A stretch of DNA of 64,000 nt from a virus. Taxonomy: Duplodnaviria; Caudoviricetes. The notes below the pieces were generated by a model. It did no database searches, had not been told where the DNA came from, and worked only from the letters and a program-made list of their open reading frames with translations. Location: IMG/VR virus record IMGVR_UViG_3300042673_001351, positions 18,597-82,596 of that record; one strand, written 5' to 3'. A program made the translations under genes and the position numbers. This document shows positions 1-26,594 of the stretch, piece after piece. How positions within the stretch are numbered: the stretch's first letter is position 1; every line of letters begins with the position of its first letter.

Positions 1-1085
1 GAGGAGTCTGTTGAAGAAACTACTATTTTTAAATGAAAAAATCTTTGTTGGTTAAAATCTGAATACTTGTACTGAGGTATTGAATATCCGTTTTCGCATT
101 GTTCATAAGACACTCCGTCTAGACTTGTATAAACAGAAATTCCAGAGCTACCGTCCCATTGAATTTTTGAAGAATCCATTGATATACCAGAAGGCATAGA
201 TATAATATCTTTTAAAATAACTTCTTTTGTTTCTAATAAATCTGTCTTAGATAATTGAATATATTCTTCTGACCTACCTAGCGTAAGATCCTCTGTTAAA
301 AAATATTGCCAAGATTTATCTTTTGGATAATTATAGGTAAATGATGTTCTCATTCCATTGTCATAAATATTAAAAATTTCTCCATTGTCTGGATACGCAA
401 TCTGTATTGGTAAAGTATTTTGATTACTTAGGTAATGATCTTTAATTTGTTTTTCTGATAAAGAGTATCTATACACTGCTGGATTATCTATTAAAAACTC
501 GTCTGCGCTATTTTGTGTAGGCCCAGACTTTAGTAAGACCTGTGTATTTTCAAAGGGAACGCCAGTTATTGTTTTGCTAATAGCCAAGTTGCCGTCTAAA
601 TATATTGATGCTGAATTTACTGAATATTTGCATACAACATAAATAGACTTATTAGTTTCTGGAACTGTGTACTCTAAAGTTTCGGTGCCAATAACAAATA
701 TAATATTGTTGTTTTGCCAAGCAATTCCAAGATCATTAGACAAATCGATAAAAATTGGAGTAAGGTTTGTAGAAGATATTTTTGGTAAAATCCAACACTC
801 TATAGTAAATTCGTTGTCCGCTGTGTCTAGCGTTCCAAATCCGCCTCCTGCTGCCTGTGCGTAATAATCATTAATGATTTCAAACTCTATATTTGATAAG
901 GAGGTAATTTTTGCTGAGTACTGGCCTCCAGAAACCATTGGCATTATTTTAGTTTGGCTTGGAAGGCTTCCTGTATAAACTCCATTATTACCGCATCCAG
1001 AAATGTCTATTGCTGTGGTAGTGGAATCATCTAGCTCCCAGAATCCAATTGGATGGTCTTTTAGTATTTTATAAGAGTATGACAT
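1..1085 (-). CDS. LamG/concanavalin-A-like virion (tail) protein, runs off window start
   Basis: Hand translation from ATG at 1085: MSYSYKILKDHPIGFWELDDSTTTAIDISGCGNNG..., a typical LamG N-terminus. The same frame reads cleanly where spot-checked at the window start. Confidence 0.7.
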   Translation of the reverse strand, partial: MSYSYKILKDHPIGFWELDDSTTTAIDISGCGNNGVYTGSLPSQTKIMPMVSGGQYSAKITSLSNIEFEIINDYYAQAAGGGFGTLDTADNEFTIECWILPKISSTNLTPIFIDLSNDLGIAWQNNNIIFVIGTETLEYTVPETNKSIYVVCKYSVNSASIYLDGNLAISKTITGVPFENTQVLLKSGPTQNSADEFLIDNPAVYRYSLSEKQIKDHYLSNQNTLPIQIAYPDNGEIFNIYDNGMRTSFTYNYPKDKSWQYFLTEDLTLGRSEEYIQLSKTDLLETKEVILKDIISMPSGISMDSSKIQWDGSSGISVYTSLDGVSYEQCENGYSIPQYKYSDFNQQRFFHLKIVVSSTDS

Positions 1086-1110
1086 TTAAAAATTATACCA
1101 TTGATGTGGT

Positions 1111-1800
1111 TTAGTATCCACCAATGTGGAATGCCTGTCCAGTTAAACTACTTGATCTTGGGTCAAGCAAAAGCTCTACAACATTACATATATCATCAGA
1201 TGTAAAAACTGTGCGGTTAATAATTTGTGGGCCAGCAAATAGCTTAAAAGCCATGTCTGGTATGCCCTCTGTCATTGTTGATTTTATTGGGCCTGGTGAT
1301 ATACAATTTGGTCTAATAGATGTATTTTGTAATTTTTTTGCTAAAGATTTTGTAAATCCATATACTGCATGCTTACTTGCCCCATATATTGAAAAATCAG
1401 TTATTGCATGTGCTGATAGGCTTGCCATATTTATTATTGGAGTATGCTGTTTTTTGTCCATTAATGGCAAAAACGTTTGACAAGAATTCATTGTTCCTAT
1501 TACGTTTGTAGAAAATATTGATTCCATTTCGCTCTGTTCTATTGTTAGCCAGTCTACAAATGGGGTTTCTAGTATTCCAGCACAATTTATTAAAGCTTGT
1601 ACTGTAATATTTTTTTCTTTTAAATCTTCAAATATTGGAGTTAGGGTATTTTTTTGGCTTACGTCTGCTTGATAAGTTTTAAAGGATACATCGTTTTGAG
1701 GCATACCTCTTGATATGCCAATGACATCATATCCATTTTTAGAAAGCCTATTTGCTATTACATTCCCAATTCCCCTGCTTGATCCAGTTACTATAATCAT
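1111..1800 (-). CDS. Short-chain dehydrogenase/reductase (FabG-like)
   Basis: TGSSRGIG Rossmann motif, NCAG, catalytic YGASK, ISPG. Confidence 0.9.
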   Translation of the reverse strand: MIIVTGSSRGIGNVIANRLSKNGYDVIGISRGMPQNDVSFKTYQADVSQKNTLTPIFEDLKEKNITVQALINCAGILETPFVDWLTIEQSEMESIFSTNVIGTMNSCQTFLPLMDKKQHTPIINMASLSAHAITDFSIYGASKHAVYGFTKSLAKKLQNTSIRPNCISPGPIKSTMTEGIPDMAFKLFAGPQIINRTVFTSDDICNVVELLLDPRSSSLTGQAFHIGGY

Positions 1801-2462
1801 TATTCTGTCCCGTCTGAGTAGTATGCGTTTTTTCTATTGTGATACCAGTTTGGCAAGGAATATCTTGTTCCACTTGTTACCGCATCAACTTCGTGAACAT
1901 AAACAAAATTTGATGGGAAAAACAGTAGGCTTCCAGCTTCTGGCTTCATGTCTATTCCGCAATGCGGAAATCTTATGTTGCCACCTTCATAATCGTCATT
2001 TAAATAAAGAAGTGCCGATAAAACTCTGCTGCTTATTCCATGGTCTGAGTGTGCTGGCAGGAATCCGCTTTCTTTATATTTTAGTAGGTGCATTGTTTTT
2101 TCTCTAGATTTAATATTTTTTTCAGCGTATGGATATAATGAAAAATAATGTTTTAGCCCATATTCTAGCCCATTAAAAAGCTGTGAAGATATATCGTGCT
2201 GGTCTTTATAGAAATAATCATTAACATCTATATCTTCTGGCTTTGGTAAAAATTTTTGCCAACAGAATATTGTTTTTTCTTTATTGCCGTGATCATAATC
2301 CCATGCTTGCCAAGGCTTTATTGATTGTGACCTATAGTCTTTTTGTAAGCTTCTTTTTTCTTCTAAAGACTCTATTTTATTAATTAATTCATTAGGCTCT
2401 TTTATAATATTTTTATAATAAACAACCCCCAAAGCCAATTCTTCATATTGCATTATTAGCAC
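1800..2462 (-). CDS. 2OG-Fe(II) oxygenase, prolyl-4-hydroxylase-like
   Basis: HSD...YLNDDYEGG...HEV...RYS facial triad and 2OG-binding Arg. Confidence 0.85.
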   Translation of the reverse strand: MLIMQYEELALGVVYYKNIIKEPNELINKIESLEEKRSLQKDYRSQSIKPWQAWDYDHGNKEKTIFCWQKFLPKPEDIDVNDYFYKDQHDISSQLFNGLEYGLKHYFSLYPYAEKNIKSREKTMHLLKYKESGFLPAHSDHGISSRVLSALLYLNDDYEGGNIRFPHCGIDMKPEAGSLLFFPSNFVYVHEVDAVTSGTRYSLPNWYHNRKNAYYSDGTE

Positions 2463-2998
2463 TCCTTAAAATCTGGGTCTACGAACTCTTGCTTGGTTGA
2501 TTGCATATAGAGGGCTGTATACCTACTACCAGAAGTAATTTCTTTAACCCCATGAATATATTGATAATCATTTCCTGGGAAAAATATAGCAGAATACTTT
2601 TTGGCCTTTAAAGAAAATGCTTGTTTAGGGAAATATATCTCTCCGCCCTCGTACTCGTCATTTAAATAAATTACGGTGCTATATTCTATGAATGGTTCTT
2701 TTTCAATTGCGTCTATGTGAGGACTTCCACTTTGTCCTGGCTGCCACCACGAGCCAAAAGCCTTAGTAACAATTACTTTGTCTTTTAAGTTAAAAAATTC
2801 TTTCTGAATGTGGTTTGCTCTTACTGAATATTTTTTAAGTATATCCATCACCCTATTGTTATATGGGAAAGCAGTTCCGCCGTTTCTATCTTTATAGTAT
2901 TCTGGATATGGGTTTATTTTTGACGGCGATTGCATCTCTTCCATAAGAGAAAATGCATCTTGTTCTGATATAAAATCTTCTACTATTTTTATTAACAT
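2456..2998 (-). CDS. 2OG-Fe(II) oxygenase, prolyl-4-hydroxylase-like
   Basis: HID...YLNDEYEGGE...HGV...RYT. Confidence 0.85.
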   Translation of the reverse strand: MLIKIVEDFISEQDAFSLMEEMQSPSKINPYPEYYKDRNGGTAFPYNNRVMDILKKYSVRANHIQKEFFNLKDKVIVTKAFGSWWQPGQSGSPHIDAIEKEPFIEYSTVIYLNDEYEGGEIYFPKQAFSLKAKKYSAIFFPGNDYQYIHGVKEITSGSRYTALYMQSTKQEFVDPDFKEC

Positions 2999-3813
2999 TA
3001 CCTGATCTCCTTAATCCTATCAAGATATCTTAATCCGCCCATTCTATCTATTTGAGACTGGCCAGTGTCGTAAACAACATCGTTATCTTCAAACGGTAGC
3101 TGAATTAAATTTATATTAAAGTTTTTTTGAATTTCATTTGAATATTTTTCAATAAATTGATTATAGTTATGGGTTAAAGAAAATGGGGTATATTTATCCT
3201 CTACTGAATTTTTATTAATTGATATGTATTCGTCTGGGAAATTATAAATATCTACGCCACTATTAATTAAATCTATTGAAATACTTTCTTCTTCTCCGCA
3301 GTATTTTAAGTGAGTTGGTTGATTTATTATTGCAAAATCTTCAGACAATGCAAATATAAAATTTCTGTCTATATAATTTATTTTATTAAAATTTGCAGAT
3401 GGTACTCTTTCTGGCTCTAGCATGAACCAATTTTTATTTTTTAAGGTAACTGTAGAATTTCCAGATAAAATTGAGTTTTTGTTATTCTTTAAAAATTCAA
3501 CTGCATGGATGTCCCAATCTTTAGCTAATGAAACATCGTCTCCAATTTGCATATAATATTTTTTATTCAGTGACTTAAATGCATCCCGCTTATATTCAAT
3601 TGGGCTTTTAATAGAGTCCCACGTAACATATTTATAAACAATTGATGCATAAAAATCTGGTTGGTCTAGGGATCTAGTTCTGTCTACACTATTTTGATCA
3701 ATAATGTAAAAATATAACATATTTTTTTGACTAGATTTGTCTATAATTTCAGATACAGTTTTAAATAAATTTTTATTTTGATAGCTGTAAATGCATATAC
3801 CAATATTTTCCAT
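2998..3813 (-). CDS. GT-A glycosyltransferase resembling Skp1 hydroxyproline GlcNAc-transferase (Gnt1/GT60-like)
   Basis: IGICIYSYQN...KT...IIDQ, YYMQIGDD...DWD and GEEESIS...GVDIY parallel the family motifs IASYRD, YYLQIDSH...WD and GEE...GYDIY. The DSH motif is altered to GDD. Start refined to MENIG. Confidence 0.65.
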   Translation of the reverse strand: MENIGICIYSYQNKNLFKTVSEIIDKSSQKNMLYFYIIDQNSVDRTRSLDQPDFYASIVYKYVTWDSIKSPIEYKRDAFKSLNKKYYMQIGDDVSLAKDWDIHAVEFLKNNKNSILSGNSTVTLKNKNWFMLEPERVPSANFNKINYIDRNFIFALSEDFAIINQPTHLKYCGEEESISIDLINSGVDIYNFPDEYISINKNSVEDKYTPFSLTHNYNQFIEKYSNEIQKNFNINLIQLPFEDNDVVYDTGQSQIDRMGGLRYLDRIKEIR

Positions 3814-4463
3814 TATTTGAATGGTATCCATTTCATAGATTTACTATTTCTAATCTCTCTAAACGGAATAATATCGTATGCAATTGTTACTCTTGCTTGG
3901 TCTTGTTGCCAATCTCCTCTAGCATGGGGGTAGCCAGTTTCGGAAATAATTGCTCTATTATTTTTATTAACATTTTCAAATAAATCATTATTATTTTTAT
4001 CTAGCTTATAGTATGTTATGGATGGCTCGGCATCTACACAATAGTACCCGTGAAAATGTGGTATGCCAGTTCCTCCAAAATGATCATGAAGTTGCTCTGG
4101 ATTTTTTACTGGATCAACCTTATTCCCGATAGACTTATAGTCAAAATTAAACCAGCCATGTATTACATAGTTTTCAAAATTAAAATCTATTTCATAATAT
4201 TCACATGCTTTTTTTGTAAGATTTTTTAATTCACAATATAGGTTATATATCTCATTGATTGGAAACATAAAAATATTATAATGATTTATTCCAATTTTTG
4301 TTGCTGCGCCTGGTAAATTTTTATATTTATCTAAAACCTCATTAGATAAATTTAAAGAATTTTCTTTAATAATTTCATCGTTTATTTTATATAAATATTT
4401 TGATAGTTCTTGCGTATCATTATTTAAATATGATTCAAAAAATTTTTGTGGTTTATTTAACAT
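3813..4463 (-). CDS. 2OG-Fe(II) oxygenase-like protein
   Basis: GWFN...HDH...FHGYY...H...RVTIAYD; paralog of the adjacent gene. Confidence 0.7.
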   Translation of the reverse strand: MLNKPQKFFESYLNNDTQELSKYLYKINDEIIKENSLNLSNEVLDKYKNLPGAATKIGINHYNIFMFPINEIYNLYCELKNLTKKACEYYEIDFNFENYVIHGWFNFDYKSIGNKVDPVKNPEQLHDHFGGTGIPHFHGYYCVDAEPSITYYKLDKNNNDLFENVNKNNRAIISETGYPHARGDWQQDQARVTIAYDIIPFREIRNSKSMKWIPFK

Positions 4464-5104
4464 ATTGGCATCCAATGTTGTGGATGTGCATTGTTTGCTA
4501 TTAAACTTTTTAATGGAACTATATCGTATGCAATTGTTACTCTAGGGCCTTCCCAGTCCCAAGATCCCATTGCATGTGGATGTCCCATTTCTGATATGAT
4601 AAGCCTGTTGTCTTTATTGTGGTTATCAACTTCTTTACCAAAAACTTTATAATACGTTGTAGATGGCTCTGCTTTTACGCAATAGTATCCGTGAAAATAT
4701 GGAGCATACGGTCCACCGTGATCGTGCCAGTCCAGTTTTCCTTTGTCGTTATAATTAATATTAAACCAGCCTTGAATCATGTATTGTTGTTTTTCAAAAT
4801 CAACTTCATAATACTCACAAGCTTCTTTAACCATTTCTACAAGGTTTTTATATAGCTTATGTATTGATGGATGATAAAATTGAAAAACATTATACTCTCT
4901 CCATTTTATAGTAGATACGCTATCTGATGACAGCCAATGATCTTTTTCTGTAACCTCTGTTATTCCAGACAACTTTAAGTTTTCCATATTAGAATATTGA
5001 TTTTGTAAAAACTCTGCCAATTGACTAAGATCGTTATCTAAATATCTTTCAAAAAATTTATGCTCTTTGCCTGTTGGCTGGTTCATTTGCATATTATTAA
5101 TCAT
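4457..5104 (-). CDS. 2OG-Fe(II) oxygenase-like protein
   Basis: GWFN...WHDH...FHGYY...H...RVTIAYD. Confidence 0.7.
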   Translation of the reverse strand: MINNMQMNQPTGKEHKFFERYLDNDLSQLAEFLQNQYSNMENLKLSGITEVTEKDHWLSSDSVSTIKWREYNVFQFYHPSIHKLYKNLVEMVKEACEYYEVDFEKQQYMIQGWFNINYNDKGKLDWHDHGGPYAPYFHGYYCVKAEPSTTYYKVFGKEVDNHNKDNRLIISEMGHPHAMGSWDWEGPRVTIAYDIVPLKSLIANNAHPQHWMPIC

Positions 5105-5854
5105 TTATTTTCCCTTATACTGTTTACGTTGCCATACTATATTTTTATAATAGGCATAAATTGAAGACCTTCTTTTTTCATCTTTAATTTGATTCATTTC
5201 TTTCCCGTTAACCGAATAATCTATCTCCAAAGCCCAATCTTCTCTTTTAATTGGAATCATCTGAAATAGAGGTGTTCCTTTAGGTATTATACCAATAAAG
5301 TTCCTTTTTAGGAAGAAGGATGTAAATACTGGTGTGTGCCATAAATCGGAGTCTATTATTCCGCTAAGGGTGGTAAATGGCAAATCGTGTCTATTTAATG
5401 GGTGGGTTATTAATAAAGAATATCCTTTTGGTGTTTCCGAATACCAGTTTACTTTCCAACCAAAATGTAATGGGTGATGCTGTGTGGGGACTGGGACGTC
5501 TATCATTAATCTTTTGTCCACTATCATGTTGTGTCCTTCCCAGGAAAGTACTGGAAATCCGTTTTTATCTTGAGTTACATGTAAATCATATTCTAGGGTA
5601 TACATGTAACCAGAAGTTAATGCGTCAAAAAATGGCATGCATAATTTTGTTGAAGCAGCGCTTCCATCGGTTCCTCTATCATTAACTGGGTGCAGCTTGC
5701 TAATGTGATTAGATTTATAAAATCTAGAAAGCTTTTTATACCAATCTGGAAGATGAATTTTAGATTCTTCTGGCTCGACAATTAGTCCGTTGTTTAAGTC
5801 ATCGGGATTAATTGAAAATCCTGGTGTAAATTTAACTATTAATTCTTTTTTCAT
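5105..5854 (-). CDS. Conserved phage protein (DUF6065-like, possible dUTPase-like beta fold)
   Basis: PDWYK...KLCMPFFDA...GY...TPKGYS...HPLN...SGIIDSD...IPKGTPLFQMIPIKREDW. Confidence 0.5.
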   Translation of the reverse strand: MKKELIVKFTPGFSINPDDLNNGLIVEPEESKIHLPDWYKKLSRFYKSNHISKLHPVNDRGTDGSAASTKLCMPFFDALTSGYMYTLEYDLHVTQDKNGFPVLSWEGHNMIVDKRLMIDVPVPTQHHPLHFGWKVNWYSETPKGYSLLITHPLNRHDLPFTTLSGIIDSDLWHTPVFTSFFLKRNFIGIIPKGTPLFQMIPIKREDWALEIDYSVNGKEMNQIKDEKRRSSIYAYYKNIVWQRKQYKGK

Positions 5855-6560
5855 ATTCCCTTATTATTTTTTTAATAGTTTTTTTATCTGCATATACTTC
5901 TATATCAAATAAATACGAACCTCTTTTTATTAACCCGCAAATATTGTCTTCCATATGATTTTTAGAGTTTGTAAAATAAAAATCAACAAAGTTTGCTTCT
6001 TTTATTATAACATTTTCATCTGTTTTTGTAAAAGAATCTTTTTTTTCAATTATTTTTAGTGAAGGATTTTCTATATTGCATTTAATTAAATACTGTATGT
6101 CCATGTCTAAAAACCAAGGAATATAAATTTTAAAAATTCTTTTAGAAATTGCATTTTCATCTACAATATTATATTGATTTTCTGATGGGTAAAATTGACG
6201 TAGCCAGCATTTATCGGTTGCATAAAAAAAACTATTAATTGGATTTGATTTGAATACCCCCCTATGCCCTAGCAACGGATCAGCTGTTTGAATTAATATA
6301 TCCCCGTAGCTATAATATCTAATTGTTAAACTATTTTTAGAATTCTTTATTATCTCTGGCGGGTTAGAAAAATGATGGGCATACATGTTTACTGGTTTTA
6401 GAATTGATTGTTTATAGGCAGGATCAGATTTAACATATTCCCATTCTTTCCACTTTGGAAACAAATTAGAGGTATGACATATTTGTTCAAAAGTCATTGT
6501 TGACATTAGAGACCAAGATTCCGCTTCATAGGGCACTCTATTAACTGTCTTATTGGTCAT
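5832..6560 (-). CDS. Hypothetical protein
   Basis: 242-aa ORF overlapping both neighbours in the operon. Confidence 0.6.
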   Translation of the reverse strand: MTNKTVNRVPYEAESWSLMSTMTFEQICHTSNLFPKWKEWEYVKSDPAYKQSILKPVNMYAHHFSNPPEIIKNSKNSLTIRYYSYGDILIQTADPLLGHRGVFKSNPINSFFYATDKCWLRQFYPSENQYNIVDENAISKRIFKIYIPWFLDMDIQYLIKCNIENPSLKIIEKKDSFTKTDENVIIKEANFVDFYFTNSKNHMEDNICGLIKRGSYLFDIEVYADKKTIKKIIREYEKRINS

Positions 6561-7276
6561 TTATATGTTTTCTTTTTCCAAAATTTCAGTCTATATCCAT
6601 TTTGAAATACTGATCTAACCTGTAAAGTTTTTTCTTTTATTTTAGTATCTGACTGCCTGTCATCGCTTATTGAGCTCTCCCAGTCTTCTCTTTTAAATGG
6701 TATTACTTGAATGATTGGAGTACCTTGTTTAATTATTCCCTTAAATCCTTTTTTAACAAAAAAAGATAGATATCCGTCTGACATATATGCGTCTGTGTCT
6801 ATCACTCCAGGGATAGATCTAATGGGAGAGTCCTCTGCATGCATTGGAGAAGTAAATAAACAACTGTGCCCTTCCTCTGTTTTAACTAACCACATTGGGT
6901 GAATTCTAATAATTTCTTCGTGAAAATAATCTGGGATGGGATATTTAGCCATCTGCTCTTTTAAATGATGTGAAAGAATGTATTCTTTCCGCATTCCCAT
7001 TATCTCAGATGTTACCTGTACTTTTATTTTATCTTCTGTTGCGTCTATAAATATATCCGTTGGGCATCTTAAATAGTATCCAAATGTCATTGAATCAAAT
7101 ATAGATTGACATTTTTTAATTGTTAGCATCATTGTTCCGTTATGAATATTTTGATCGTTATTTAAATAGCTTTCTTGATGCTTCCACCACTCTGGTATGC
7201 TGGACGCAACACTAACTGGCTCTGGGAATGCTTTTTTATATAACCTATACTTTGGAATAAATTCTATTTTAATCAT
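6557..7276 (-). CDS. Conserved phage protein, paralog of 5105-5854
   Basis: PEWWK...KKCQSIFDS...GY...PGVIDTD...IKQGTPIIQVIPFKREDW; start refined to the ATGA overlap. Confidence 0.55.
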   Translation of the reverse strand: MIKIEFIPKYRLYKKAFPEPVSVASSIPEWWKHQESYLNNDQNIHNGTMMLTIKKCQSIFDSMTFGYYLRCPTDIFIDATEDKIKVQVTSEIMGMRKEYILSHHLKEQMAKYPIPDYFHEEIIRIHPMWLVKTEEGHSCLFTSPMHAEDSPIRSIPGVIDTDAYMSDGYLSFFVKKGFKGIIKQGTPIIQVIPFKREDWESSISDDRQSDTKIKEKTLQVRSVFQNGYRLKFWKKKTYK

Positions 7277-7836
7277 GCTAGTGGTATCCATTTTTGATAG
7301 TACTGCCTGTATAGATATTCTAGAGGAGAGATATTAAATGATAGTATTGTTAAACCATTACTTATTTTTTTAAACAATATCTTTGATGATGAATCTAAAA
7401 ATATTAATTGTCCAGGAATTAAATCAATTTTTTCATCATTTATAAAAATTTGATCTTTATTGCAATCTATAACATAAAATCCAACAAATGTAGTTTTATA
7501 ATTAGGGGCAAAATTTAGATATGTGTCTAATGTAATAGTTTCTTTTTTAACTATATTGCCAAGTAAATAAAAATAATTTCTTTCAAAATTAACTCCATTT
7601 TTAATGCAATATTCTTTTGTTAAATCAGATATTTCTTTATATAGAATATGAATGTTTTTGTTATACATTGCAAAAAAGTTAAATGTTTTATAATCAATTA
7701 AAGAAACTTTTTTAGGTTTAAACCCTAGCTTAATTCCTGGATTAAATTTATAAACATATTCGTGCATCTGAGAGATCATTTTATTATACTCGGAAAGCAT
7801 AGTTTTGTTATTAATTGAATTAATATTTTTTATCAT
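7273..7836 (-). CDS. Degenerate 2OG-oxygenase-like paralog lacking the HxD motif
   Basis: FNFF...IHILYKEI...EYC...FVGFY...FNISPL...W.P aligns by eye with 3813/4457, but without the metal ligands. Confidence 0.45.
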   Translation of the reverse strand: MIKNINSINNKTMLSEYNKMISQMHEYVYKFNPGIKLGFKPKKVSLIDYKTFNFFAMYNKNIHILYKEISDLTKEYCIKNGVNFERNYFYLLGNIVKKETITLDTYLNFAPNYKTTFVGFYVIDCNKDQIFINDEKIDLIPGQLIFLDSSSKILFKKISNGLTILSFNISPLEYLYRQYYQKWIPLA

Positions 7837-8467
7837 TTGGCTCCCAAATGCTCATAGAGTGAAATAATGCTGGAAATATCGGATCTTTGTATATGACTAA
7901 TTCTGCTGGCATATTTATTTCAGGAAGTTTCCCAGGTGTCATCCCAACCTTAACTATTTTTTCAATTTTATCTTTGTTTAAATTAAACCTTTTTTTAGTT
8001 GCTGATGCTATGAGGGAGGATCCGCTTAATGCTACGGCCTGTGTCCCTTGTGTATAGCCTGGGCCTAATCTTGGTAAAATGTTAAAAAATGTACACCATA
8101 TTGGATATCCAATTAAAGCTAATGATTCTATGTACTTTTTCTTTCGATGTATTGGGCTAGTATAGAACCTATCTGTTATTGCAGTATAGTGATCTTTATC
8201 ATATCCGTCTATAATTATTGTAGCCCAAGATGCTGGATAATCGTTGTTAATAAAATAAGACATAACAATTGTGCCAGACTCATTATCATCATTTTTATAA
8301 AGACATTCTATAGCTTGAGAATTCCATTTATCGGTAAGCACTGTATATTGTGCCCAAGTACCTTTTATGTATTGTGGATACCTTCTAAATTTAGGTACAG
8401 GTTTACCTTTAAAATACCTAACTCCAGAAATTCCCATTAAGCGTAATTTCTTTACTTTTTTAAACAA
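7820..8467 (-). CDS. Hypothetical protein (weak GNAT-like motif)
   Basis: FYTSPIHRKKK resembles GNAT motif A; otherwise unassigned. Confidence 0.45.
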   Translation of the reverse strand: MFKKVKKLRLMGISGVRYFKGKPVPKFRRYPQYIKGTWAQYTVLTDKWNSQAIECLYKNDDNESGTIVMSYFINNDYPASWATIIIDGYDKDHYTAITDRFYTSPIHRKKKYIESLALIGYPIWCTFFNILPRLGPGYTQGTQAVALSGSSLIASATKKRFNLNKDKIEKIVKVGMTPGKLPEINMPAELVIYKDPIFPALFHSMSIWEPNDKKY

Positions 8468-8482
8468 ATTAATTCCTGACTA

Positions 8483-9772
8483 CTAGGCTTGGTCTTGAGA
8501 ATCTCTCCATTGTTGATACATTGCATCTAGCTTATCGCTAAATGTTTCATCGCTAGAAGTTAATGCGTTTGCATCACTTTTTGCTCTATATGAATCGTGT
8601 ACTAGCGCATTGTCTGTAAAGAATAAGTCGTATGGCTCTACGTCAATTGATATTAGTAACTCTTTTTGTGTAGTTACTTTATAGTCTGTAATTTCTTTCC
8701 AGTCATTTTCGCTTGGTGAAAAAATTAAATCTGTTTCCAATACGCTTGATGATGGTTGGAATTGAATCTGTCCATCTCTTTTTATTAAAATAAAGTGTTG
8801 TAAAGAATATTTATTTCCATTAATAACAATAGCTCCTTCGTCAGAAATTCTTGCTGCCATTGCAACAATGGTAGTTTCGGCTGGGGATATGTTTGCGCTA
8901 TTAACAGACCAATTTTGTAAATATTCTAATATTGCTGTATTTGAAACATCTATTCCCTCGATATTAGCAGAGTATAAAACGTCGCCAACGCTTAGGTTGT
9001 GTGCAAGGATTAATCCTTCTGGCACCTTTGATTTAATAACTGTTTCTGCTCCAACCGATTTTGGAGTAAAGCCAAATGGAGTAAATCCAAACGGAGTAAA
9101 TCCAAACGGAGTAAATCCAAACGGTGTAAATCCAAATGGGGTAAATCCAAATGGGCTAAAACTAAATGGTGTTGTAGTAACTGAGTTTGAATTTCCGCTG
9201 TATGATGAAAAACCATTAGCGTTTTGAGCTCTTACCCTAACGGTTTGAGCTTCATTTCCGTTTTCTGATAGGTTAGCGCTAAATGTACTAGAGTTATATG
9301 ACGTAACATCATTTTCATGATCAATTAATCCATATCCAGTAATGTCTTTTCCACCATTATTTCCTGGGGCTGACCAAGAAACAGAGTTCGTTTCTGCTCC
9401 ATTATTTGAAAGACTTGGAGCGCTTGGTGTTTGTGGAACTGTTGTTGCTGTTATTGAATTACTTGCGTCTGACGGCACAGAATTACCAACTGCGTTTGTA
9501 GCTATAACTGTAAATGTATAACTAGTTCCAGATTGTAAACCTTCTACCGTAATAGGAGAAGAAGATCCAGAAGCAGTATAACTTCCTGGACTTGAGGTAA
9601 CTGTATATGAAGTAGCTGGTGGGGAATCTACGCTCATTGTAAATGGTACAGATGAGGCTCCATTATTAAATGCTCTATCTGTTCCTATATCTGTTGCTGT
9701 TCCGATAATTGGCTTAAATGGCTCTAAAAAGTCATTGGCCGATTGGCTCATTCTACCTGCTTGTTTTGACAT
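8483..9772 (-). CDS. Two FN3 domains + (FGFTP)n repeat + Hint domain + short C-terminal tail
   Basis: FN3 motifs (GLQSGTSYTFTVIATNAVG; VSWSAP...VRAQNANG). Hint: SVGAETVI...LSVGD...YSLQH...ISIDVEPYDLFFTDNALVHD (8594-9058). Confidence 0.8.
   Translation of the reverse strand: MSKQAGRMSQSANDFLEPFKPIIGTATDIGTDRAFNNGASSVPFTMSVDSPPATSYTVTSSPGSYTASGSSSPITVEGLQSGTSYTFTVIATNAVGNSVPSDASNSITATTVPQTPSAPSLSNNGAETNSVSWSAPGNNGGKDITGYGLIDHENDVTSYNSSTFSANLSENGNEAQTVRVRAQNANGFSSYSGNSNSVTTTPFSFSPFGFTPFGFTPFGFTPFGFTPFGFTPFGFTPKSVGAETVIKSKVPEGLILAHNLSVGDVLYSANIEGIDVSNTAILEYLQNWSVNSANISPAETTIVAMAARISDEGAIVINGNKYSLQHFILIKRDGQIQFQPSSSVLETDLIFSPSENDWKEITDYKVTTQKELLISIDVEPYDLFFTDNALVHDSYRAKSDANALTSSDETFSDKLDAMYQQWRDSQDQA
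9062..9166 (-). repeat. Seven 15-bp coding repeats: FSFSP + 6x FGFTP
   Basis: Tandem units that differ mostly at synonymous positions. Confidence 0.95.
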
Positions 9773-9796
9773 ATATAATCTCCTCTATTATTTTCT

Positions 9797-11980
9797 TTAA
9801 GCTAAAAGATCTCCGAAAACTAACCAACCGCTTGGAGTTTTCATTGCTGTTACAACCGAATTTGTAGTTCTAAACTTTAATCCTGGTGTACCAACAACAC
9901 TGTTTGTTGAAGCAAATGATGCTCCAGTTCCTGATGCTTGGTAGAAATCAATTGATTGACCAGTTGAGTATCCAGATGAAGGAAGAGTAATTTGTACTGC
10001 TCCATTTATTGGGATAAACTTGTCTTGCTCACCAGATGCGAGTGTTTCTGATGATGTTCTCTCTGTTCCAAATGTTGTGATAGATGGAACGCCAACTTTT
10101 GTCTGTGTTCCGTCTGAGAATGCAATTCCAGATGCTGAAACAGTTACTGTGCCAGTAAATGTTGGAGCATCAATTGGTGACTTGGTGTCTATTTGAGTCT
10201 GAATTGCTGATGTGACTCCATTTAGATATTGAAGTTCTGTATTTGATACATCTCCAATAGTTGCTGACGCTGCTTCAAATCCAGCAACCTGTAGGTTATC
10301 AAGTGATCCTTGAGTAAAGTTGACTGTGGTAGCTGGTTCGTCTGTTACGTCCTTGAACAACTTCCACTTAGCGTCTGATACGTCTCTTACTATACCAGCA
10401 TGCTTTCCTGAACCATCGTTATAAGCAACTACAAGACCAAGGTCTACTGTGTTACTTGCATTTTGGTGGGCAAGCTGAAGCATGTTATCTTCAATTGTAA
10501 TAGATGTTGCTGATGCGTTAAATGTTGTACCGTTAATTGTTAGGTCTCCATCAACTACAAGGTTCTGATCAATTTCAACTGAGCCTGTAAATACTGCTCC
10601 AGACAATGAAGCCTTTCCATCAATTTGTCCTTGAATTCCTGAAGTTACTCCGTTAACATATCCAATCTCAGTTGATGAAACATCTCCGATTGATGTTGTT
10701 GAAGGAAGGACTACTGTTCCAGTAAATGTTGGGCCTTCTAAGTTAGCCTTTAGGTCAAGTGCTGCTTGTGTAGCAGTTGAAACTGGCTTATTAGCATCTG
10801 TCGTGTTATCAACATTTCCAAGGCCTACTGAAGACTTTGTAAGCGCTGCTACTGCAGTTGAGATCTTTGTATCTGCTGCTGTTCCTGCTGCTGTAATTGC
10901 ATCTGATTCTGCTGTGTCTGCGTACTCTTTTGTTGCTAGAAGTGAAGTATCTGCAATTCCGTGTACGTTGGTTGTGTCTGCTGTGAGAGTACTGATAGCA
11001 TCATCTACATATTTTTTAGTAGATGCTTGTAAATCAAATGTAGGAGCACCGTTTAAAGTTAAAGCTCCAGTCATAGATGAACCAGATTTTAACATTAAAT
11101 CTGCTGTGTTAACAATGCCATGAACATCTGTTGAGTCAGTACTATGATTAGTCATTGCGGTTCCTATTGCTGAATCTGCATAAGTATTTGCGTCTGCCTC
11201 TGCTTGATCTACATAAGATTCAGTAGCAAGTTCTGCTGTATCTGCAATTCCGTGTACGTTTGTTGTAGATGATCCGTGTGCTATTCCTGCTGCAGACAAA
11301 TTTCCAAGTGATGTTGTGACTCCTGCAGCATAGTTTGCGTCATCTCCAATTGCTGCAGCAAGCTCGTTAAGTGTATCTAGTGCTCCTGGTGCCGCATCTA
11401 CTAAATTGTTAACTGCTGATGTAATATCAGATGTCAACGCTACAGTTCCTGAAGAATTTGGGAAAGTAATTGTTCTGTTTGCTGTAGGGTCTACTACTGT
11501 AAGAATAGTTTCATAAGCATTTGCAGTTGCGCCTTCTAAAACAATACTTGACTTAGGAACTAACAGGTTACCGTCAACATCTAGCTTTGCTGGTCCGCCT
11601 GCATTTCCGACGTCTGCTAGTAATACATAATCTGCGGCTGTTGAGTTTTCTAATCCAGTTACTTGACTGTCAACATAAGATTTAAGTGCTACAACTGATG
11701 AGTCAATATTAAGAGAAATTGTATTTGTGGCATCGTTGTAAGATTTTGTAAGACCTGATCCCATTGAAAGGGCTGTGTCAATTGCATCTTGTGCAATTTC
11801 TGTAATTCCTGGTGCATCTGATGCGATGTATGAAAGGCTAGTCCATGCTGTGCTTCCAGTTCCAACTTTAATTTTTCTGGTGTCTGTTTCAACACCCATT
11901 TCACCTGCAGCTAGTGTAGGATTTGCTGAGGTCCATTCTGATGCTGTTCCTCGTCTTACTTGAATTCTTACTGTTGACAT
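9797..11980 (-). CDS. Tail fibre-like protein with Mtd N-terminal-like domain
   Basis: IQVRRGTASEWTSANPTLAAGEMGVETDT; VHGIADT repeats; VGLGNVDNT; C-terminal WLVFGDL. Confidence 0.75.
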   Translation of the reverse strand: MSTVRIQVRRGTASEWTSANPTLAAGEMGVETDTRKIKVGTGSTAWTSLSYIASDAPGITEIAQDAIDTALSMGSGLTKSYNDATNTISLNIDSSVVALKSYVDSQVTGLENSTAADYVLLADVGNAGGPAKLDVDGNLLVPKSSIVLEGATANAYETILTVVDPTANRTITFPNSSGTVALTSDITSAVNNLVDAAPGALDTLNELAAAIGDDANYAAGVTTSLGNLSAAGIAHGSSTTNVHGIADTAELATESYVDQAEADANTYADSAIGTAMTNHSTDSTDVHGIVNTADLMLKSGSSMTGALTLNGAPTFDLQASTKKYVDDAISTLTADTTNVHGIADTSLLATKEYADTAESDAITAAGTAADTKISTAVAALTKSSVGLGNVDNTTDANKPVSTATQAALDLKANLEGPTFTGTVVLPSTTSIGDVSSTEIGYVNGVTSGIQGQIDGKASLSGAVFTGSVEIDQNLVVDGDLTINGTTFNASATSITIEDNMLQLAHQNASNTVDLGLVVAYNDGSGKHAGIVRDVSDAKWKLFKDVTDEPATTVNFTQGSLDNLQVAGFEAASATIGDVSNTELQYLNGVTSAIQTQIDTKSPIDAPTFTGTVTVSASGIAFSDGTQTKVGVPSITTFGTERTSSETLASGEQDKFIPINGAVQITLPSSGYSTGQSIDFYQASGTGASFASTNSVVGTPGLKFRTTNSVVTAMKTPSGWLVFGDLLA

Positions 11981-12021
11981 ATTTATTACCCCTTATTTGC
12001 TAATTATAGCATTTATTTTTG

Positions 12022-12378
12022 TTAAACTATAACTCCAGAATCAAATGTTATCCCATATAATGAAGTATCTGGGCCACCACCGTCTGCGAATTTAGTTGCT
12101 GTTGTACTTACTCCGTTTGCTTGAACTGTATAGACTGGAAGACCATTATAATCTATAGCTAGTCCAATGTCCATAAAGCCTATTTCTGTTTGACTATCTG
12201 GAATGTCCGACACAAATGCAATTGGGCTCCAGGTTCCATTTAACTGGATCTGTAGCTTATTTGTTGTTGTGTCAAATCTAAGGGGTGTATTGCCTAATAC
12301 AACGTTAGAGTCAAAGGTAGCGTTTCCTGCTACGTTTAACCCGTTTTTTACTCTAAAGTTTTTATCTGTTGTTGCCAT
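12022..12378 (-). CDS. Virion-associated protein
   Basis: KNFRVKNGL N-terminus shared with the neighbouring structural gene. Confidence 0.55.
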   Translation of the reverse strand: MATTDKNFRVKNGLNVAGNATFDSNVVLGNTPLRFDTTTNKLQIQLNGTWSPIAFVSDIPDSQTEIGFMDIGLAIDYNGLPVYTVQANGVSTTATKFADGGGPDTSLYGITFDSGVIV

Positions 12379-12410
12379 TTAAGTTCACATATCCCCTAAT
12401 TGTTTTTTGT

Positions 12411-12431
12411 GGGGAGATTCAGGCTCTCCCC
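12411..12431. terminator. GC-rich hairpin between structural genes
   Basis: ggggaga-ttcaggc-tctcccc. Confidence 0.45.
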
Positions 12432-12446
12432 TAGCCTTTTATTTAA

Positions 12447-14039
12447 TTATTTAATTAATGTTCCAACTACAACAACTTCAGTGTTATTGTTTGCTGGTGT
12501 TACTCGAATTCTTACATCTGAGCCAGAATAATCTGCAGTTATTGCAGCTAACTCTGTTCCGTTTGAATATGTAATTCCATATTCAGAAACTGCTACGTTG
12601 TTAGAAGTATCAAGTGTAACTACTAAGTCTGATACCTGGGTGTGGCTACCATTTTTTGCTTTAATTACAAGCTTAGCGCTTCGGTAATCTTCTGCTGCCC
12701 ATGAGATAGCAGTTGTTGCTGCAGCGGTTACAATATTTCCAGTTGTTGCTGCAACTTGCTTGGCAACAGAGTTGTAATTAATTGCTGTAAATGATGTAGT
12801 TCCGTTTTGCTGTGCTGTATTAGCTGCTGCTGCTGTGGCTTCTGCTGCTGCTTGAGCTGCGTTAGCCTTTGATGTTGCATCTGCTGATGCTGTTGAGATA
12901 GCGGCTGCTTGGGCTGCGTTGGCCTTTGATGTTGCATCTGCTGCTGCTGTTGCTTCTGCTGCAGATTGGGCTGCGTTGGCCTTTGATGTTGCGTCTGATG
13001 CTGCTGCTGATTGGGCTGCGTTGGCCTTTGATGTTGCATCTGCTGCTGCTGTGGCTTCTGCTGCTGCTTGAGCTGCGTTGGCCTTTGATGTTGCATCTGA
13101 TGCTGCTGCAGATTGGGCTGCGTCTGCTTCGCCCTTAGCAAATGCTGTGGTTGCAATCTGAGTTGTGTTAGTATCTGCTGCTGCTGTAGGAGCTGTTGGA
13201 ACTCCAGTAAGATCTGGAGAAGCAAGCGGTGCCTTTGTTCCCAAAGCTGTTGTAATAGTTGTTGTGTAATTAGCGTCATCATTAATTGCTGCTGCTAATT
13301 CATTTAATGTATTAAGAAGTGCTGGTGCACCATCTACTAATGAATCTACTGCAGTTGAAATTGCTGTATTACGGTTTGAAACCTCTGTTGAGATTGCAGT
13401 TGAAAGTGCTGATGCTGCAGTGGCTTCTGCTGCTGCTTGAGCTGCGTTGGCTTTAGTTGTAGCATCTGTTGCTGCTGCTGTAGTTGCTGCAGACTGTGCT
13501 GCGTTAGCCTTTGATGTTGCATCTGCTGATGCTGTTGCTTCTGCTGCTGCTTGAGCTGCGTTAGCCTTTGATGTTGCATCTGCTGATGCTGTTGAGATAG
13601 CGGCTGCTTGGGCGGCATCTGCCTTAGTGGTTGCATCTGCTGATGCGGTTGCTACTGAGGCTGCGTCGCCTGATACTCTAAGTGCTGCTTCTGCTGCTAC
13701 TTTTGTTGTAGCGTCTGTTCCTGCTGCTGTAATTGCTGCTGACTGTGCTGCGTTAGCCTTTGATGTTGCATCTGCTGATGCTGTTGCTTCTGCTGCTGAC
13801 TGTGCTGCGGCTGCTGCGCCTGATGTATCAAATACGCCAGATTTAATATTAAGCTCTCCAGCAATAACTTCCATCTGTGTTGATTCAACAGAGTTTATAA
13901 GATTGGTTCCACCAACAAGATTGAGAATGTAAGCATCTCCGCCTGTTTCTGTAAGTATGTTTTGGCCATTGATTGTTCCTGTTGATCCTTCAACTACAAG
14001 GCCTTGTTTGATTCTAAAGTTTTTTACTACCGTTGCCAT
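12447..14039 (-). CDS. Ala-rich coiled-coil tail fibre protein
   Basis: Many ADATSKANAAQ repeats; APALLNTLNELAAA and PTAPTA...NTTQIATTAF fibre motifs. Confidence 0.75.
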   Translation of the reverse strand: MATVVKNFRIKQGLVVEGSTGTINGQNILTETGGDAYILNLVGGTNLINSVESTQMEVIAGELNIKSGVFDTSGAAAAAQSAAEATASADATSKANAAQSAAITAAGTDATTKVAAEAALRVSGDAASVATASADATTKADAAQAAAISTASADATSKANAAQAAAEATASADATSKANAAQSAATTAAATDATTKANAAQAAAEATAASALSTAISTEVSNRNTAISTAVDSLVDGAPALLNTLNELAAAINDDANYTTTITTALGTKAPLASPDLTGVPTAPTAAADTNTTQIATTAFAKGEADAAQSAAASDATSKANAAQAAAEATAAADATSKANAAQSAAASDATSKANAAQSAAEATAAADATSKANAAQAAAISTASADATSKANAAQAAAEATAAAANTAQQNGTTSFTAINYNSVAKQVAATTGNIVTAAATTAISWAAEDYRSAKLVIKAKNGSHTQVSDLVVTLDTSNNVAVSEYGITYSNGTELAAITADYSGSDVRIRVTPANNNTEVVVVGTLIK

Positions 14040-14055
14040 TTTATCTCCTGCCGTC

Positions 14056-14613
14056 TTAAGACTTTAAAGACGTTCTGTAATATCTAGCGGTTACAGATCC
14101 ACTTATTGGTGCTACGTTTAAACTTATTATACCTGAATTTTCTTCAAAAGTAACATTAGCAAGAGTACTGCTTGTGTTAGATATAATATTTGATTCTACT
14201 ACATTTAAATTTGTTCCATCGTTTAATAATAAAATATCTGATGTTGCGTATTCGCTTCCTTTTGAAATCTGAAGCTTGTATGAAACTGTCCTGTATGCTG
14301 TTTTTGAAAACTCATCTACTTTTGTTTTGTTTTCAATTCCCGCAATTGTAAGGTCATTGTTTCCTTCTAGGCCTAAAAGAACTTCTGCCACTGAGGTTGA
14401 GTTTTCAATGTCTTGCAATTGAGCAATTACATCTGCTACCTTATAGTCTAAAGAGTTTACATCTTGAGAGCCATTGACTCCAACTTTTGCTTGTAATGCC
14501 TCTATCGCATCATTAGCGTTAGTATGTTGTTGCGAGTGAGATGGACTAGATAACGCATCCGTTGAGTTTGGATTTGTTAATGAGTCTATCGAACTTGGAA
14601 AATTTGTTGCCAT
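14056..14613 (-). CDS. Virion structural protein
   Basis: MATNFPSSIDSL...HSQQH...NDAIEALQAKVG, a phage structural N-terminus. Confidence 0.6.
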   Translation of the reverse strand: MATNFPSSIDSLTNPNSTDALSSPSHSQQHTNANDAIEALQAKVGVNGSQDVNSLDYKVADVIAQLQDIENSTSVAEVLLGLEGNNDLTIAGIENKTKVDEFSKTAYRTVSYKLQISKGSEYATSDILLLNDGTNLNVVESNIISNTSSTLANVTFEENSGIISLNVAPISGSVTARYYRTSLKS

Positions 14614-14679
14614 TGTTTTATTGCTCCAAAATTATGACTTGTAGGTATATTATATCCTATTTATTGTTATAGGACACAC

Positions 14680-21918: not shown

Positions 21919-22001
21919 ATAGACCTTTTCTTCCGCCTGCGGATTAATTAAATTTTTTGATGAAGTCTAAGTGTATCAAACTTTTATTAAGGGGTCTAGC
22001 C

Positions 22002-22991: not shown

Positions 22992-23013
22992 ACACTCTTT
23001 CTGGTCAACTGGC

Positions 23014-23043
23014 TTGACACTCTTTAAAGCACAATGGTACTAT
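23014..23043 (+). promoter_or_regulatory. SigA-type promoter
   Basis: TTGACA-N18-TACTAT with extended TG. Confidence 0.6.
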
Positions 23044-23076
23044 TATAGTTCGTTATCTCTAAAGGAGGAAATGCCA

Positions 23077-23628: not shown

Positions 23629-23637
23629 GGAGCATTT

Positions 23638-23856
23638 TTGCGACAGATACAATATGTATCTCAGTATATAGCTTTATCAGAGGAGAGCCTTGTTCCAAAA
23701 TTGGAATGTCCAATGGATCAGGGCTCTCTTTTCTGCAATTTAGATTTAGATGATAACATATTCTTGTATTGTATTTCTTGTGATTATAAAAACTTCATAG
23801 GAAGCTCTTTTTATGATAAAATTGTATTATTAGTAGATGGAGTTAAAAATGTCTGA
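23638..23856 (+). CDS. Small zinc-finger protein
   Basis: CPMD...CISC. Confidence 0.5.
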   Translation: MRQIQYVSQYIALSEESLVPKLECPMDQGSLFCNLDLDDNIFLYCISCDYKNFIGSSFYDKIVLLVDGVKNV

Positions 23857-26460: not shown

Positions 26461-26485
26461 CTTTGGAAAATAATAATTATACAAT
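26457..26485 (+). promoter_or_regulatory. SigA-type promoter
   Basis: TTGACT-N17-TACAAT. Confidence 0.65.
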
Positions 26486-26491
26486 TGTTTT

Positions 26492-26567: not shown

Positions 26568-26594
26568 CTATTTAAATAGGTGTATAATTAATTC

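Follow-up and report, generated by a model that had tools for sequence, protein, structure and literature searches.

Viruses that tailor their own proteins have been described in various settings. The collagen-modifying enzyme of Mimivirus provides a viral parallel for coupled hydroxylation and glycosylation, and the virions of mycobacteriophages are glycosylated by phage-encoded glycosyltransferases (GTs) whose genes lie next to those for structural proteins, a modification that was experimentally shown there. Paramecium bursaria Chlorella virus 1 (PBCV-1) encodes a prolyl 4-hydroxylase (P4H) with proline-rich repeat substrates (Eriksson et al. 1999, via PMC9301287), and a passage of PMC9301287 states that the viral use of prolyl 4-hydroxylase 'remains cryptic'. 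In the Skp1 pathway of protists (PMC3515798, PMC11570480), prolyl hydroxylation by PhyA is followed by glycosylation by Gnt1 (family GT60). Here we compare these systems with a locus of an uncultured freshwater phage, in which a cassette of 11 genes directly follows a gene (g12) encoding a tandem FGFTP repeat and a C-terminal Hint domain. The window, i.e. the whole stretch of 64,000 nucleotides (nt) that was analysed, comprises bases 18597-82596 of the 82.6-kb IMG/VR virus record IMGVR_UViG_3300042673_001351, which is estimated to be 76% complete. All evidence on the window was computed from sequence, predicted structures and database comparison.

The cassette enzymes probably decorate phage proteins. 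More specifically, we tentatively propose, at somewhat less than even odds, that the late-expressed cassette hydroxylates and glycosylates such proteins and that the repeat linkers of g12 and of a second repeat-Hint gene (g17) form the prime substrate. A role in protein tailoring is the best supported one because of the kinds of enzymes that are encoded, the structure of the operon, and the recurrent linkage to repeat genes at two sites with enzyme sets that vary among lineages.

Exactly 11 co-oriented open reading frames (ORFs; 1111-8467, minus strand) are found behind g12 (8483-9772), and every ORF from 3 to 17039 lies on the minus strand. In the order away from g12 they are located at 7820-8467 (g11), 7273-7836 (g10), 6557-7291 (g09), 5832-6560 (g08), 5105-5854 (g07), 4457-5104 (g06), 3813-4475 (g05), 2998-3831 (g04), 2456-2998 (g03), 1800-2462 (g02) and 1111-1800 (g01). 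The junctions from g12 to g01 are, in the same order, a 15-nt gap, overlaps of 17, 19, 4 and 23 nt, one abutting pair, and overlaps of 19, 19, 1, 7 and 1 nt (as read from the coordinates, with nine overlaps in all). This close packing of starts and stops runs from the fibre genes across the cassette to the LamG gene. Upstream the block is flanked by an Mtd_N-type tail fibre gene (g13, 9797-11980; PF18454, 9.5e-17) and downstream by the start of the gene for a large LamG/ConA-like protein (g00, 3-1085; PF13385 (Laminin_G_3), 9.8e-11), which is cut by the window end and has homologues of 1187-1245 amino acids (aa) in relatives; the ConA-like protein that takes this place in halovirus HF2 has been annotated as VP1, a minor virion protein. 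The layout given in an earlier note on this DNA (hereafter the original prediction), of 11 co-oriented genes with overlapping or abutting ends between tail genes, is confirmed by these coordinates and by the two flanks. No terminator-like sites were found on the minus strand inside the block, and promoter-like sites occur in it at the level of shuffled sequence (68 versus 72.1 ± 8.7).

The block DNA is present in lake-water and freshwater metagenomes of many studies, and at least half of the sampled words were recovered in 16 runs, 12 of which carry no flag as a possible source, across 10 studies. Parts of g04, of g06 and of the g12/g11 junction are represented in contigs of two RNA libraries, which is a weak hint at expression as DNA carry-over is possible; the parts that these contigs leave uncovered do not argue for silence. 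Two population variants were seen: one DNA contig jumps from 3821 to 4466 and lacks 644 nt, in effect g05, whereas one RNA-library contig is 15 nt shorter near 9122, which equals one FGFTP unit fewer. Deposited phages searched with the block by megablast yielded no match.

The linkage between repeat gene and enzymes is common among relatives, although not universal. A DNA scan for (FGFTP)2 returned 89 stretches with 95 repeat ORFs in 51 clusters at 90% identity, 43 of which had at least 900 bp of downstream sequence. The next gene was a cassette gene in 30 of these 43 clusters, a cassette gene followed within two genes or after a gap in 8 more (typically a Hint-like ORF and then a P4H-like oxygenase behind a g17-type gene), and none was found in the other 5. 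The converse count started from the g06 family, for which the best 80 of 417 IMG/VR stretches were grouped into 29 clusters; among the 26 lineages with at least 4.5 kb upstream, 19 had an aromatic-repeat ORF on the same strand, 88-3859 bp upstream. The co-occurrence that the original prediction had put forward as a test was observed in 38 of 43 FGFTP clusters and 19 of 26 lineages. The outcome that the original prediction had named as a refutation, enzymes found as often without a repeat-bearing neighbour, is borne out in part: the cassette of the other 7 lineages adjoins a lysin, DUF6065-like genes are also found in replication modules and next to a ribonucleotide reductase gene in haloarchaeal viruses, and this phage has two additional P4H-type genes outside the block.

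Relatives of g09 were recovered at 27 loci: 19 with upstream sequence show a repeat gene ahead of the cassette, 2 with sufficient room show none, and 6 have no room. The 19 repeat-linked loci consist of 12 with the full cassette, 4 with a reduced one (a DUF6065-like gene and two g06-type genes) and 3 with a different enzyme set. These last three carry a (Y/F)(S/A)FTP repeat of roughly 25-40 units without Hint domain, and the YSFTP-type enzyme set comprises DUF6171, DUF6065 (8e-29), an Asp/Asn beta-hydroxylase (5e-16), a sulfotransferase-like gene and a g09 homologue, with a P4H-like gene in one locus. The enzyme set changes with the lineage while the position stays. The position of g17 constitutes a second, separate association site, where several lineages have a Hint-like ORF and then a P4H-like oxygenase, or a DUF6171 or 2-oxoglutarate (2OG) oxygenase gene. 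It was also observed that the FN3 proteins with (Y/F)(S/A)FTP repeats at L024 5247-6302 and L025 5511-6686 have no Hint domain and terminate in a Cys-rich tail. A pairing of the Tyr-containing repeat (YSFTP) with the sulfotransferase was considered and dropped: the repeat in the window has no Tyr, yet a homologous sulfotransferase-like gene is present.

The cassette encodes four apparently active Fe(II)/2OG oxygenases (g02, g03, g05 and g06). Two of these are of the P4H type, as had been predicted. The membership of g02 in PF13640 lies above the curated cut-off (4.5e-16, 60 bits versus 27), and that of g03, which has no Pfam match, is indirect only, via phrog_61 (1.1e-19) and bacterial P4H structures (Bacillus anthracis P4H in the PDB, 7.7e-4). 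The HxD...H iron triad and the RxS/T motif for 2OG are intact in both: H-S-D ... H ... R-Y-S in g02, with the distal His in VYVHEV, and H-I-D ... H ... R-Y-T in g03, with the distal His in YIHGV (motifs placed by their order in the translations and not by structural superposition). The best solved relatives of g02 are prolyl 3-hydroxylase 1 (3.2e-4), bacterial P4H (4.5e-4) and LH3 (0.01), and for g02 and g03 together the list contains prolyl 3-hydroxylase 1, the P4Hs of Bacillus anthracis and Pseudomonas, LH3 and PHD2, all with weak E-values (3e-4 to 0.05).

As in PBCV-1, a P4H-type 2OG oxygenase is found in a virus that also encodes proteins with short Pro-containing tandem repeats. Unlike the PBCV-1 case, in which a eukaryotic giant virus has one enzyme and there is in vitro proof, the present, computationally described case concerns a bacteriophage with four to five oxygenases, a GT, a short-chain dehydrogenase/reductase (SDR) and other genes in one operon, and it involves FGFTP chemistry. 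The similarity in sequence to the PBCV-1 P4H structure (5c5t) is negligible (E 0.32, g03 only).

The other two oxygenases, g05 and g06, come from an unnamed family. An AlphaFold2 model of g06 (pLDDT 91.2) and the accompanying Foldseek search place both, at the level of predicted fold, in the Fe(II)/2OG oxygenase superfamily with its double-stranded beta-helix, and the expectation of two further 2OG oxygenases holds at that level. The first matches were 3bvc and 2rg4, uncharacterised Roseobacter proteins that we take to be members of PF13759, followed by a Dictyostelium prolyl hydroxylase (6t8m, rank 3), PHD1, PHD2, Pseudomonas P4H and several natural-product 2OG oxygenases. The scores ranged from E 6e-5 to 3e-3 with TMq 0.4-0.62 (13 matches at E ≤ 0.001), and the matches listed to E 2.7e-3 are 2OG oxygenases, except for the top two, one quercetin dioxygenase and one isopenicillin N synthase. 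Five residues are invariant in 31 aligned sequences of the g06 family (H127, H129, H177, R188 and T190), which may correspond to a metal triad and the 2OG-binding Arg in the pattern H-x-H...H...R-x-T, with a His at the expected position of the acidic ligand. Neither g05 nor g06 matched any Pfam family even at E ≤ 10, and so there was no match to the model 2OG-FeII_Oxy_5 (PF13759); a profile of the g06 family recovered nothing meaningful among the sequences of solved structures. The family has 944 homologues and among the 120 listed none has a Pfam domain or an informative name. The paralogue g05 is 44% identical to g06 and is present or absent among close relatives (absent from L006, L007, L009-L013, L015 and L016). 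A further paralogue, g10 (tblastn to g06, E 3.5e-8), corresponds to the degenerate fifth oxygenase of the original prediction: the conserved His, His, His, Arg and Thr positions are all absent in 8 of 8 aligned orthologues, which suggests that it is catalytically dead.

The GT (g04, 277 aa) has 34 homologues and was predicted as a single-domain protein (model pLDDT 83.1) that clearly has a GT-A Rossmann-like fold with acidic metal and nucleotide motifs. All Foldseek matches listed to rank 37 are polypeptide GalNAc-transferases (E ~1e-10, TMq ~0.6), and the VIA-align search was headed by mGalNAc-T1 (Z 16.9 over 238 residues), with 143 chains at Z of at least 8. Other GT-A enzymes are close behind in VIA-align (Z 14-16), namely a fucosyltransferase and chondroitin polymerase, BcsA and SpsA at 14.9-15.8, and the lead of GT27 over unrelated GT-A enzymes is only 1-2 Z. 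The invariant residues are D45, D72, E180-E182 and H221. The 'GDD' motif noted earlier is indeed present, within QIGDDV; its D98 is conserved in 90% or more of 27 homologues, and the residue that follows varies between D, G, N and S.

Gnt1 likeness had been claimed for this enzyme. Membership of Gnt1/GT60 is not supported, since PF11397 scored below threshold (18.9 bits versus 21) and over residues 12-57 only (46 residues). The likeness to the Skp1 pathway thus lies in the pairing of a P4H-type oxygenase with a GT-A polypeptide glycosyltransferase and in the match of the g06 model to 6t8m. It differs in the sub-threshold PF11397 score of g04, in the target, which in the phage would be a repeat and not a single Pro, in the many more enzymes, and in the setting, cytoplasmic oxygen sensing there and a phage structural module here. 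Compared with GT27-catalysed mucin-type O-glycosylation, the likeness consists of the best structural match of g04 and an acceptor-like Thr-Pro in a tandem repeat. The enzyme is distinguished by its 277-aa single-domain form with 9-12% identity, by the proximity of other GT-A families within 1-2 Z, and by the absence from the model of a C-terminal ricin-type lectin domain, which is typical of animal polypeptide GalNAc-transferases. Thr-Pro is the kind of site used by polypeptide GalNAc-transferases, and GT27-type enzymes glycosylate Thr or Ser directly. As the predicted fold of g04 favours the GT27 type, O-glycosylation of the Thr in the T-P unit would be at least as likely as the proposed addition of O-linked N-acetylglucosamine to hydroxyproline. 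The reading as hydroxylation plus glycosylation keeps the support of the protein-modifying enzyme kinds and of the recurrent repeat linkage, and the specific Skp1-like route stands only in part.

The collagen lysyl hydroxylase/glycosyltransferase LH3, which is matched by g02 (E 0.01) and by the GT model (Z 14.6), offers a parallel in which a 2OG oxygenase hydroxylates a repeat protein and the resulting hydroxyl is then glycosylated; it is dissimilar in that the phage genes are separate rather than fused and g12 has no Gly-X-Y collagen repeat. With the glycosylation of mycobacteriophage virions the locus shares structural proteins of actinobacteriophage type and a GT beside structural genes, whereas oxygenases, repeat-Hint proteins and an SDR are absent there and the GT families are different. 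Taken together, the comparisons of sequences and models support the assignment of the enzymes to protein-modifying kinds: g02 and g03 have their closest solved relatives, at weak E-values (3e-4 to 8e-4), among hydroxylases of peptidyl proline or lysine, and the GT resembles polypeptide GalNAc-transferases.

The remaining cassette genes are less telling. Two paralogues, g09 and g07 (~30% identity; tblastn of g07 to g09, 9e-25), match phrog_7084 (9.3e-42 and 6.3e-36) in agreement with the claim that they are DUF6065-like, and they do not reach the Pfam threshold of DUF6065 (PF19541; 19.9 bits for g09 and 14.7 for g07 versus 26.6). A neighbouring gene in L024 scores 101 bits to DUF6065 and aligns with g07 and g09, at only 18% identity to g09. 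The alignment of 22 DUF6065-like members shows no conserved His pair, its profile found no relative among the sequences of solved structures, hhalign gave no relation to the g06 family (probability 0.15%), and a whole-library profile search returned only close single-domain relatives without functional clue; a literature search for DUF6065 found no papers. A possible, very divergent third paralogue is g08 (hhalign probability 17.5%, E 0.0014, C-terminal core), for which no Pfam, PHROG or PDB match was obtained. A GNAT-fold acyltransferase is a lead only for g11: PF00583 was recovered in 2 of 9 orthologues (best E 0.014) and an ESM Atlas feature search placed N-acetyltransferase clusters nearest (0.93 and 0.92), and the window copy itself has no Pfam or PHROG match and its profile gave nothing meaningful against sequences of solved structures. 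The SDR assignment of g01 proved right (PF13561 1.6e-38; PF00106 5e-38), with the classical cofactor and catalytic motifs TGxxxGIG and YxxxK present as VTGSSRGIG and YGASK; its nearest solved relatives are FabG-type reductases (~1e-20), far ahead of ElxO (2e-15), a reductase from the biosynthesis of ribosomally synthesised and post-translationally modified peptides (RiPPs).

The candidate substrate g12 encodes a protein of 429 aa with FN3 domains (fn3, 1.2e-9), seven exact FGFTP units, a C-terminal Hint domain of the bacterial intein-like (BIL) type and a tail of ~35 aa. The units are encoded by a 15-nt tandem repeat at 9062-9169 (Tandem Repeats Finder: period 15, 7.2 copies, 91% matches). The second gene, g17 (14680-15708), encodes a PASTA domain (2.5e-9), F-x-F-T-P-type repeats and a Hint domain that is 52-56% identical to the Hint half of g12, and it lies behind a second Mtd-type fibre gene (g18), the pair occupying 14680-17039. 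Across 82 distinct repeat proteins, selected by the FGFTP pattern, unit-like matches have Thr at position 4 in 601 of 714 cases (Pro at position 5 is fixed by the search pattern), and the repeat flavours among relatives include FGFTP, FGVFGFSP, YSFTP, FGA and GVFGFGPF. Complex prediction of the g06 family with the repeat and Hint half of g12 scored 0.00 in two runs, which is evidence neither way.

The Hint assignment of the C-termini of g12 and g17 is solid at the family level of sequence comparison. The window copy alone matched no Hint model, and a profile of 19 Hint relatives matched the bacterial intein-like domain 2lwy in the PDB (3.5e-10) and several inteins, with PF14890 matched by 10 of the 19 aligned relatives. 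In many relatives the domain starts with the canonical Cys and closes with His-Asn-Lys (the latter e.g. in L031, L043 and L064). In the window copies the Cys aligns with a Ser (in Lys-Ser-Val-Gly-Ala-Glu-Thr), so that the proposed nucleophile of g12 is Ser239, directly after Lys238; the motifs S-L-Q-H and S-K-A-H align with the (T/S)xxH of block B. The C-terminal His-Asn that is needed for C-terminal cleavage or splicing is replaced by His-Asp-Ser, with the tail of ~35 residues behind it, and we therefore expect these domains to be capable of N-terminal processing at most. They resemble BIL/Hedgehog-type Hint domains in superfamily and in their end position, by which cleavage would free the N-terminal part, and they differ by the Ser for Cys, the His-Asp for His-Asn and the tail. 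Free-standing Hint-like ORFs of ~200 aa that lack the first Cys were observed at L064 7048-7659, L043 4281-4961 and L056 8685-9314, in each case between a canonical repeat-Hint gene (Cys...His-Asn-Lys) and a P4H-like oxygenase. Another relative of g12 (L197 1492-3270) combines three Cys-rich modules with Pro/Thr/Ala linkers, (FGA)x~16 and a Hint domain.

The repeat gene ahead of presumed tailoring enzymes had also been compared with RiPP clusters, in whose pathways 2OG hydroxylases and SDRs occur. The gene order supports the analogy, which is otherwise loose: the 'precursor', a multidomain FN3 protein of 429 aa, is encoded within a tail module, and its release would be by Hint. A leader/core layout, a recognition element, a transporter and a dedicated protease were not found, and no protease or transporter family was matched among the 11 genes.

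The route that we infer would run as follows. The block would be transcribed as part of what appears to be a late tail-fibre operon, after which the four Fe(II)/2OG oxygenases (two of P4H type, two of the unnamed family) would hydroxylate side chains of phage-encoded proteins. Next, the GT-A transferase would attach a sugar, with Thr itself or a freshly formed hydroxyl as the acceptor, while the SDR, the possible GNAT and the DUF6065-like proteins may add or assist further steps and the dead paralogue g10 may serve as a non-catalytic partner. The linker with the aromatic/Gly/Thr/Pro repeat would be the most likely substrate, both in g12 and, acted on in trans, in g17. Cleavage at the Lys-Ser junction by the Hint domain at the C-terminus could subsequently release the modified piece (FN3-repeat or PASTA-repeat) or transfer it to another nucleophile, and so yield a tail appendage. 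A more elaborate form, which we consider unlikely, has the phage make its own hydroxylated, O-glycosylated, mucin- or extensin-like FG-repeat appendage from a multidomain precursor (FN3 or PASTA domain, repeat, Hint domain) that a dedicated cassette of several oxygenases, a glycosyltransferase, an acyltransferase and a reductase tailors in the host cytoplasm; Hedgehog-like self-cleavage would then free the modified piece or ligate it to the tail or the host wall. The viral P4H/2OG oxygenase genes, which are abundant, would thereby gain a concrete substrate.

Several observations speak against the repeat as the substrate, and a number of them would fit a different explanation, somewhat unlikely in our estimate: the block may be an accessory-gene island at a permissive site between the fibre and LamG/baseplate genes, with enzymes that act on host metabolites or the envelope or have unrelated roles, and the adjacency to the repeat gene may be a matter of history. 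The block is AT-richer than its flanks (GC 0.29-0.31 versus 0.36-0.44 in the neighbouring fibre genes), its content varies among close relatives (e.g. presence or absence of g05), and its SDR resembles FabG, a kind of enzyme whose substrates are usually small molecules. The load of accessory enzymes in the window is unusual for a phage: the intervals 19984-30400 and 44965-46233 encode a class II ribonucleotide reductase (RNR), a GT4, a sulfotransferase-like protein and a second, weak sulfotransferase-like match, a methyltransferase, a P4H-type oxygenase, a cytochrome P450 (4.8e-68), an acyl-ACP desaturase-like protein (8.9e-58) and a catalase (3.2e-93). Two P4H-type genes (28780-29445 and 57461-58162) are found in the window in addition to g02 and g03, and no enzyme gene follows g17 there.

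The relatives add to these points. In 7 of the 26 g06-family lineages the cassette, in the order g08-like, DUF6065-like, g06-like, GT and two P4H-like genes, is found next to a lysin gene, and for 4.5 kb or more there is no repeat gene; around it are genes for a CHAP lysin, a subtilase, an Ntn-hydrolase-like and a holin-like protein, and a homologue of an 889-aa protein of the window. In 3 of 5 lysin-side records a repeat-Hint gene is present ~45-65 kb away, with an FGA repeat that has no Thr or Pro; even so, a g09 homologue comes after one of these distant genes. No cassette gene occurs within 6.7 kb of a 1018-aa repeat-Hint gene that belongs to another phage type, and the g06 family and PF13640 were not found in the records of that type (8-43% complete, fragments too small to count). 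The DUF6065-like family comprises 3593 clusters at 50% identity and is far wider than the repeat proteins; one member lies in a replication module, and among deposited viruses it occurs in 49 haloarchaeal tailed-virus and halophage records and in three cyanophages. In one of these, the haloarchaeal myovirus HF2 (L205, a Halorubrum phage; record 43218-53916), the DUF6065-like gene adjoins RNR on one side and the ConA-like minor virion protein VP1 and baseplate J on the other. In relatives of the window phage an RNR gene likewise lies between the enzymes and the LamG gene, so that the site also takes genes unrelated to tailoring. This RNR/DUF6065-like/ConA-LamG neighbourhood, shared by HF2 and the freshwater relatives, suggests an old gene order, and the position of the DUF6065-like genes is therefore possibly ancestral rather than functional; more generally, much of the linkage may stem from the shared ancestry of one phage group.

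An accessory island is at odds with the repeated finding of oxygenase genes immediately behind repeat genes, which involves two different sites and enzyme sets that vary. Three of the enzyme types have closest solved relatives that work on polypeptides, and the genes overlap tightly within a late structural operon. The g06 and GT families are, moreover, unlike genes captured from host metabolism: neither had a match in 50,697 deposited phage records, and among the matches listed their homologues (944 and 34, respectively) carry no Pfam domain or informative source name, with the longest contigs mostly phage-sized (one of ~216 kb).

A further alternative, quite unlikely in our estimate and yet, like the accessory island, a serious rival, retains protein tailoring and makes the repeat-Hint proteins bystanders. 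The cassette would then act mainly on other phage proteins: the Ala/Thr/Ser-rich fibres g13, g15 and g18, the LamG protein, or the secreted 889-aa (PVDTE)n protein (60377-63046, minus strand), which has ~19 Pro/Thr-containing pentapeptide units (P-V/I-D-T-E/T), an N-terminal hydrophobic signal-like segment and a C-terminal hydrophobic anchor. Such a role could account for the cassettes away from the repeat-Hint gene, from which both a subtilase and a homologue of the 889-aa protein are only a few genes distant, and it is in line with the presence of the P4H-type gene 57461-58162 in the same region of the window, next to the CHAP lysin gene, and with the FGA-type repeats of some relatives, which offer no Pro or Thr. 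However, the 889-aa protein would exit the cytoplasm by virtue of its signal-like segment and no such segment was apparent by eye at the N-termini of the cassette proteins, the C-terminal 230 residues of its L169 homologue are Lys/Glu/Ala-rich and contain no Pro/Thr repeat, and linkage to an FGFTP-type repeat is the commoner state (19 of 26 lineages).

Finally, it is highly improbable that phage DNA is the target of the oxygenases and the GT and is hypermodified by hydroxylation of its bases and subsequent glycosylation, as in TET/JBP-type phage systems: g02 (E 0.0054) and the 28780-29445 gene (2.2e-4) do have weak Tet_JBP matches, both far below the cut-off of 34.9 bits, PHROGs 2297 and 274 (matched by g02 and g03) are labelled DNA endonucleases and one DUF6065-like gene lies in a replication module, but the best family is the P4H-type PF13640, peptidyl hydroxylases head the solved relatives, the GT has its top fold matches among polypeptide transferases, the block sits in the tail module, and its 11 genes include no match to a DNA methyltransferase or nucleotide-metabolism family.

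If hydroxylation and glycosylation of the repeat linkers is the correct reading, the locus would exemplify the oxidative tailoring and glycosylation of phage tail appendages, give functions to two orphan families (the g06 family with 944 homologues and the small GT family with 34) and reveal a new use of Hint domains in phages. In aquatic viruses, 2OG oxygenase genes, those of the P4H type included, belong to the most frequent auxiliary genes, and by placing a candidate substrate beside the enzymes in a compact operon the locus makes their role directly testable. If the reading is wrong, a well-mapped accessory-gene hot spot in a tail module is still described. The locus extends the viral protein tailoring that is already known (chlorovirus P4H, collagen-type hydroxylation/glycosylation and mycobacteriophage virion glycosylation) and is not yet a demonstrated new mechanism. 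A search at the level of literature listings (P4H/2OG, GT, bacterial intein-like or freshwater actinophage with tail fibres) found no title that describes a system of this kind. The three parts that were searched among cultured and deposited phages (the g06-type oxygenase, the GT and g12) gave no full-length match: g12 matched the 50,697 records over its FN3 part only, without a repeat-Hint counterpart.

Some minor features of the window are added here. A subtilase (1.8e-17), the P4H-type oxygenase at 57461-58162 (5.2e-8) and a CHAP lysin (58983-59567, 8e-12) occur together at 53133-59567 on the minus strand, a group that mirrors the site at which 7 of the 26 g06-family lineages hold the whole cassette. 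In other phages a homologue of the C-terminal part of the 889-aa protein lies a few genes from the cassette (L169). The window contains a single tRNA-Asp (GTC) gene at 37228-37302 on the plus strand.

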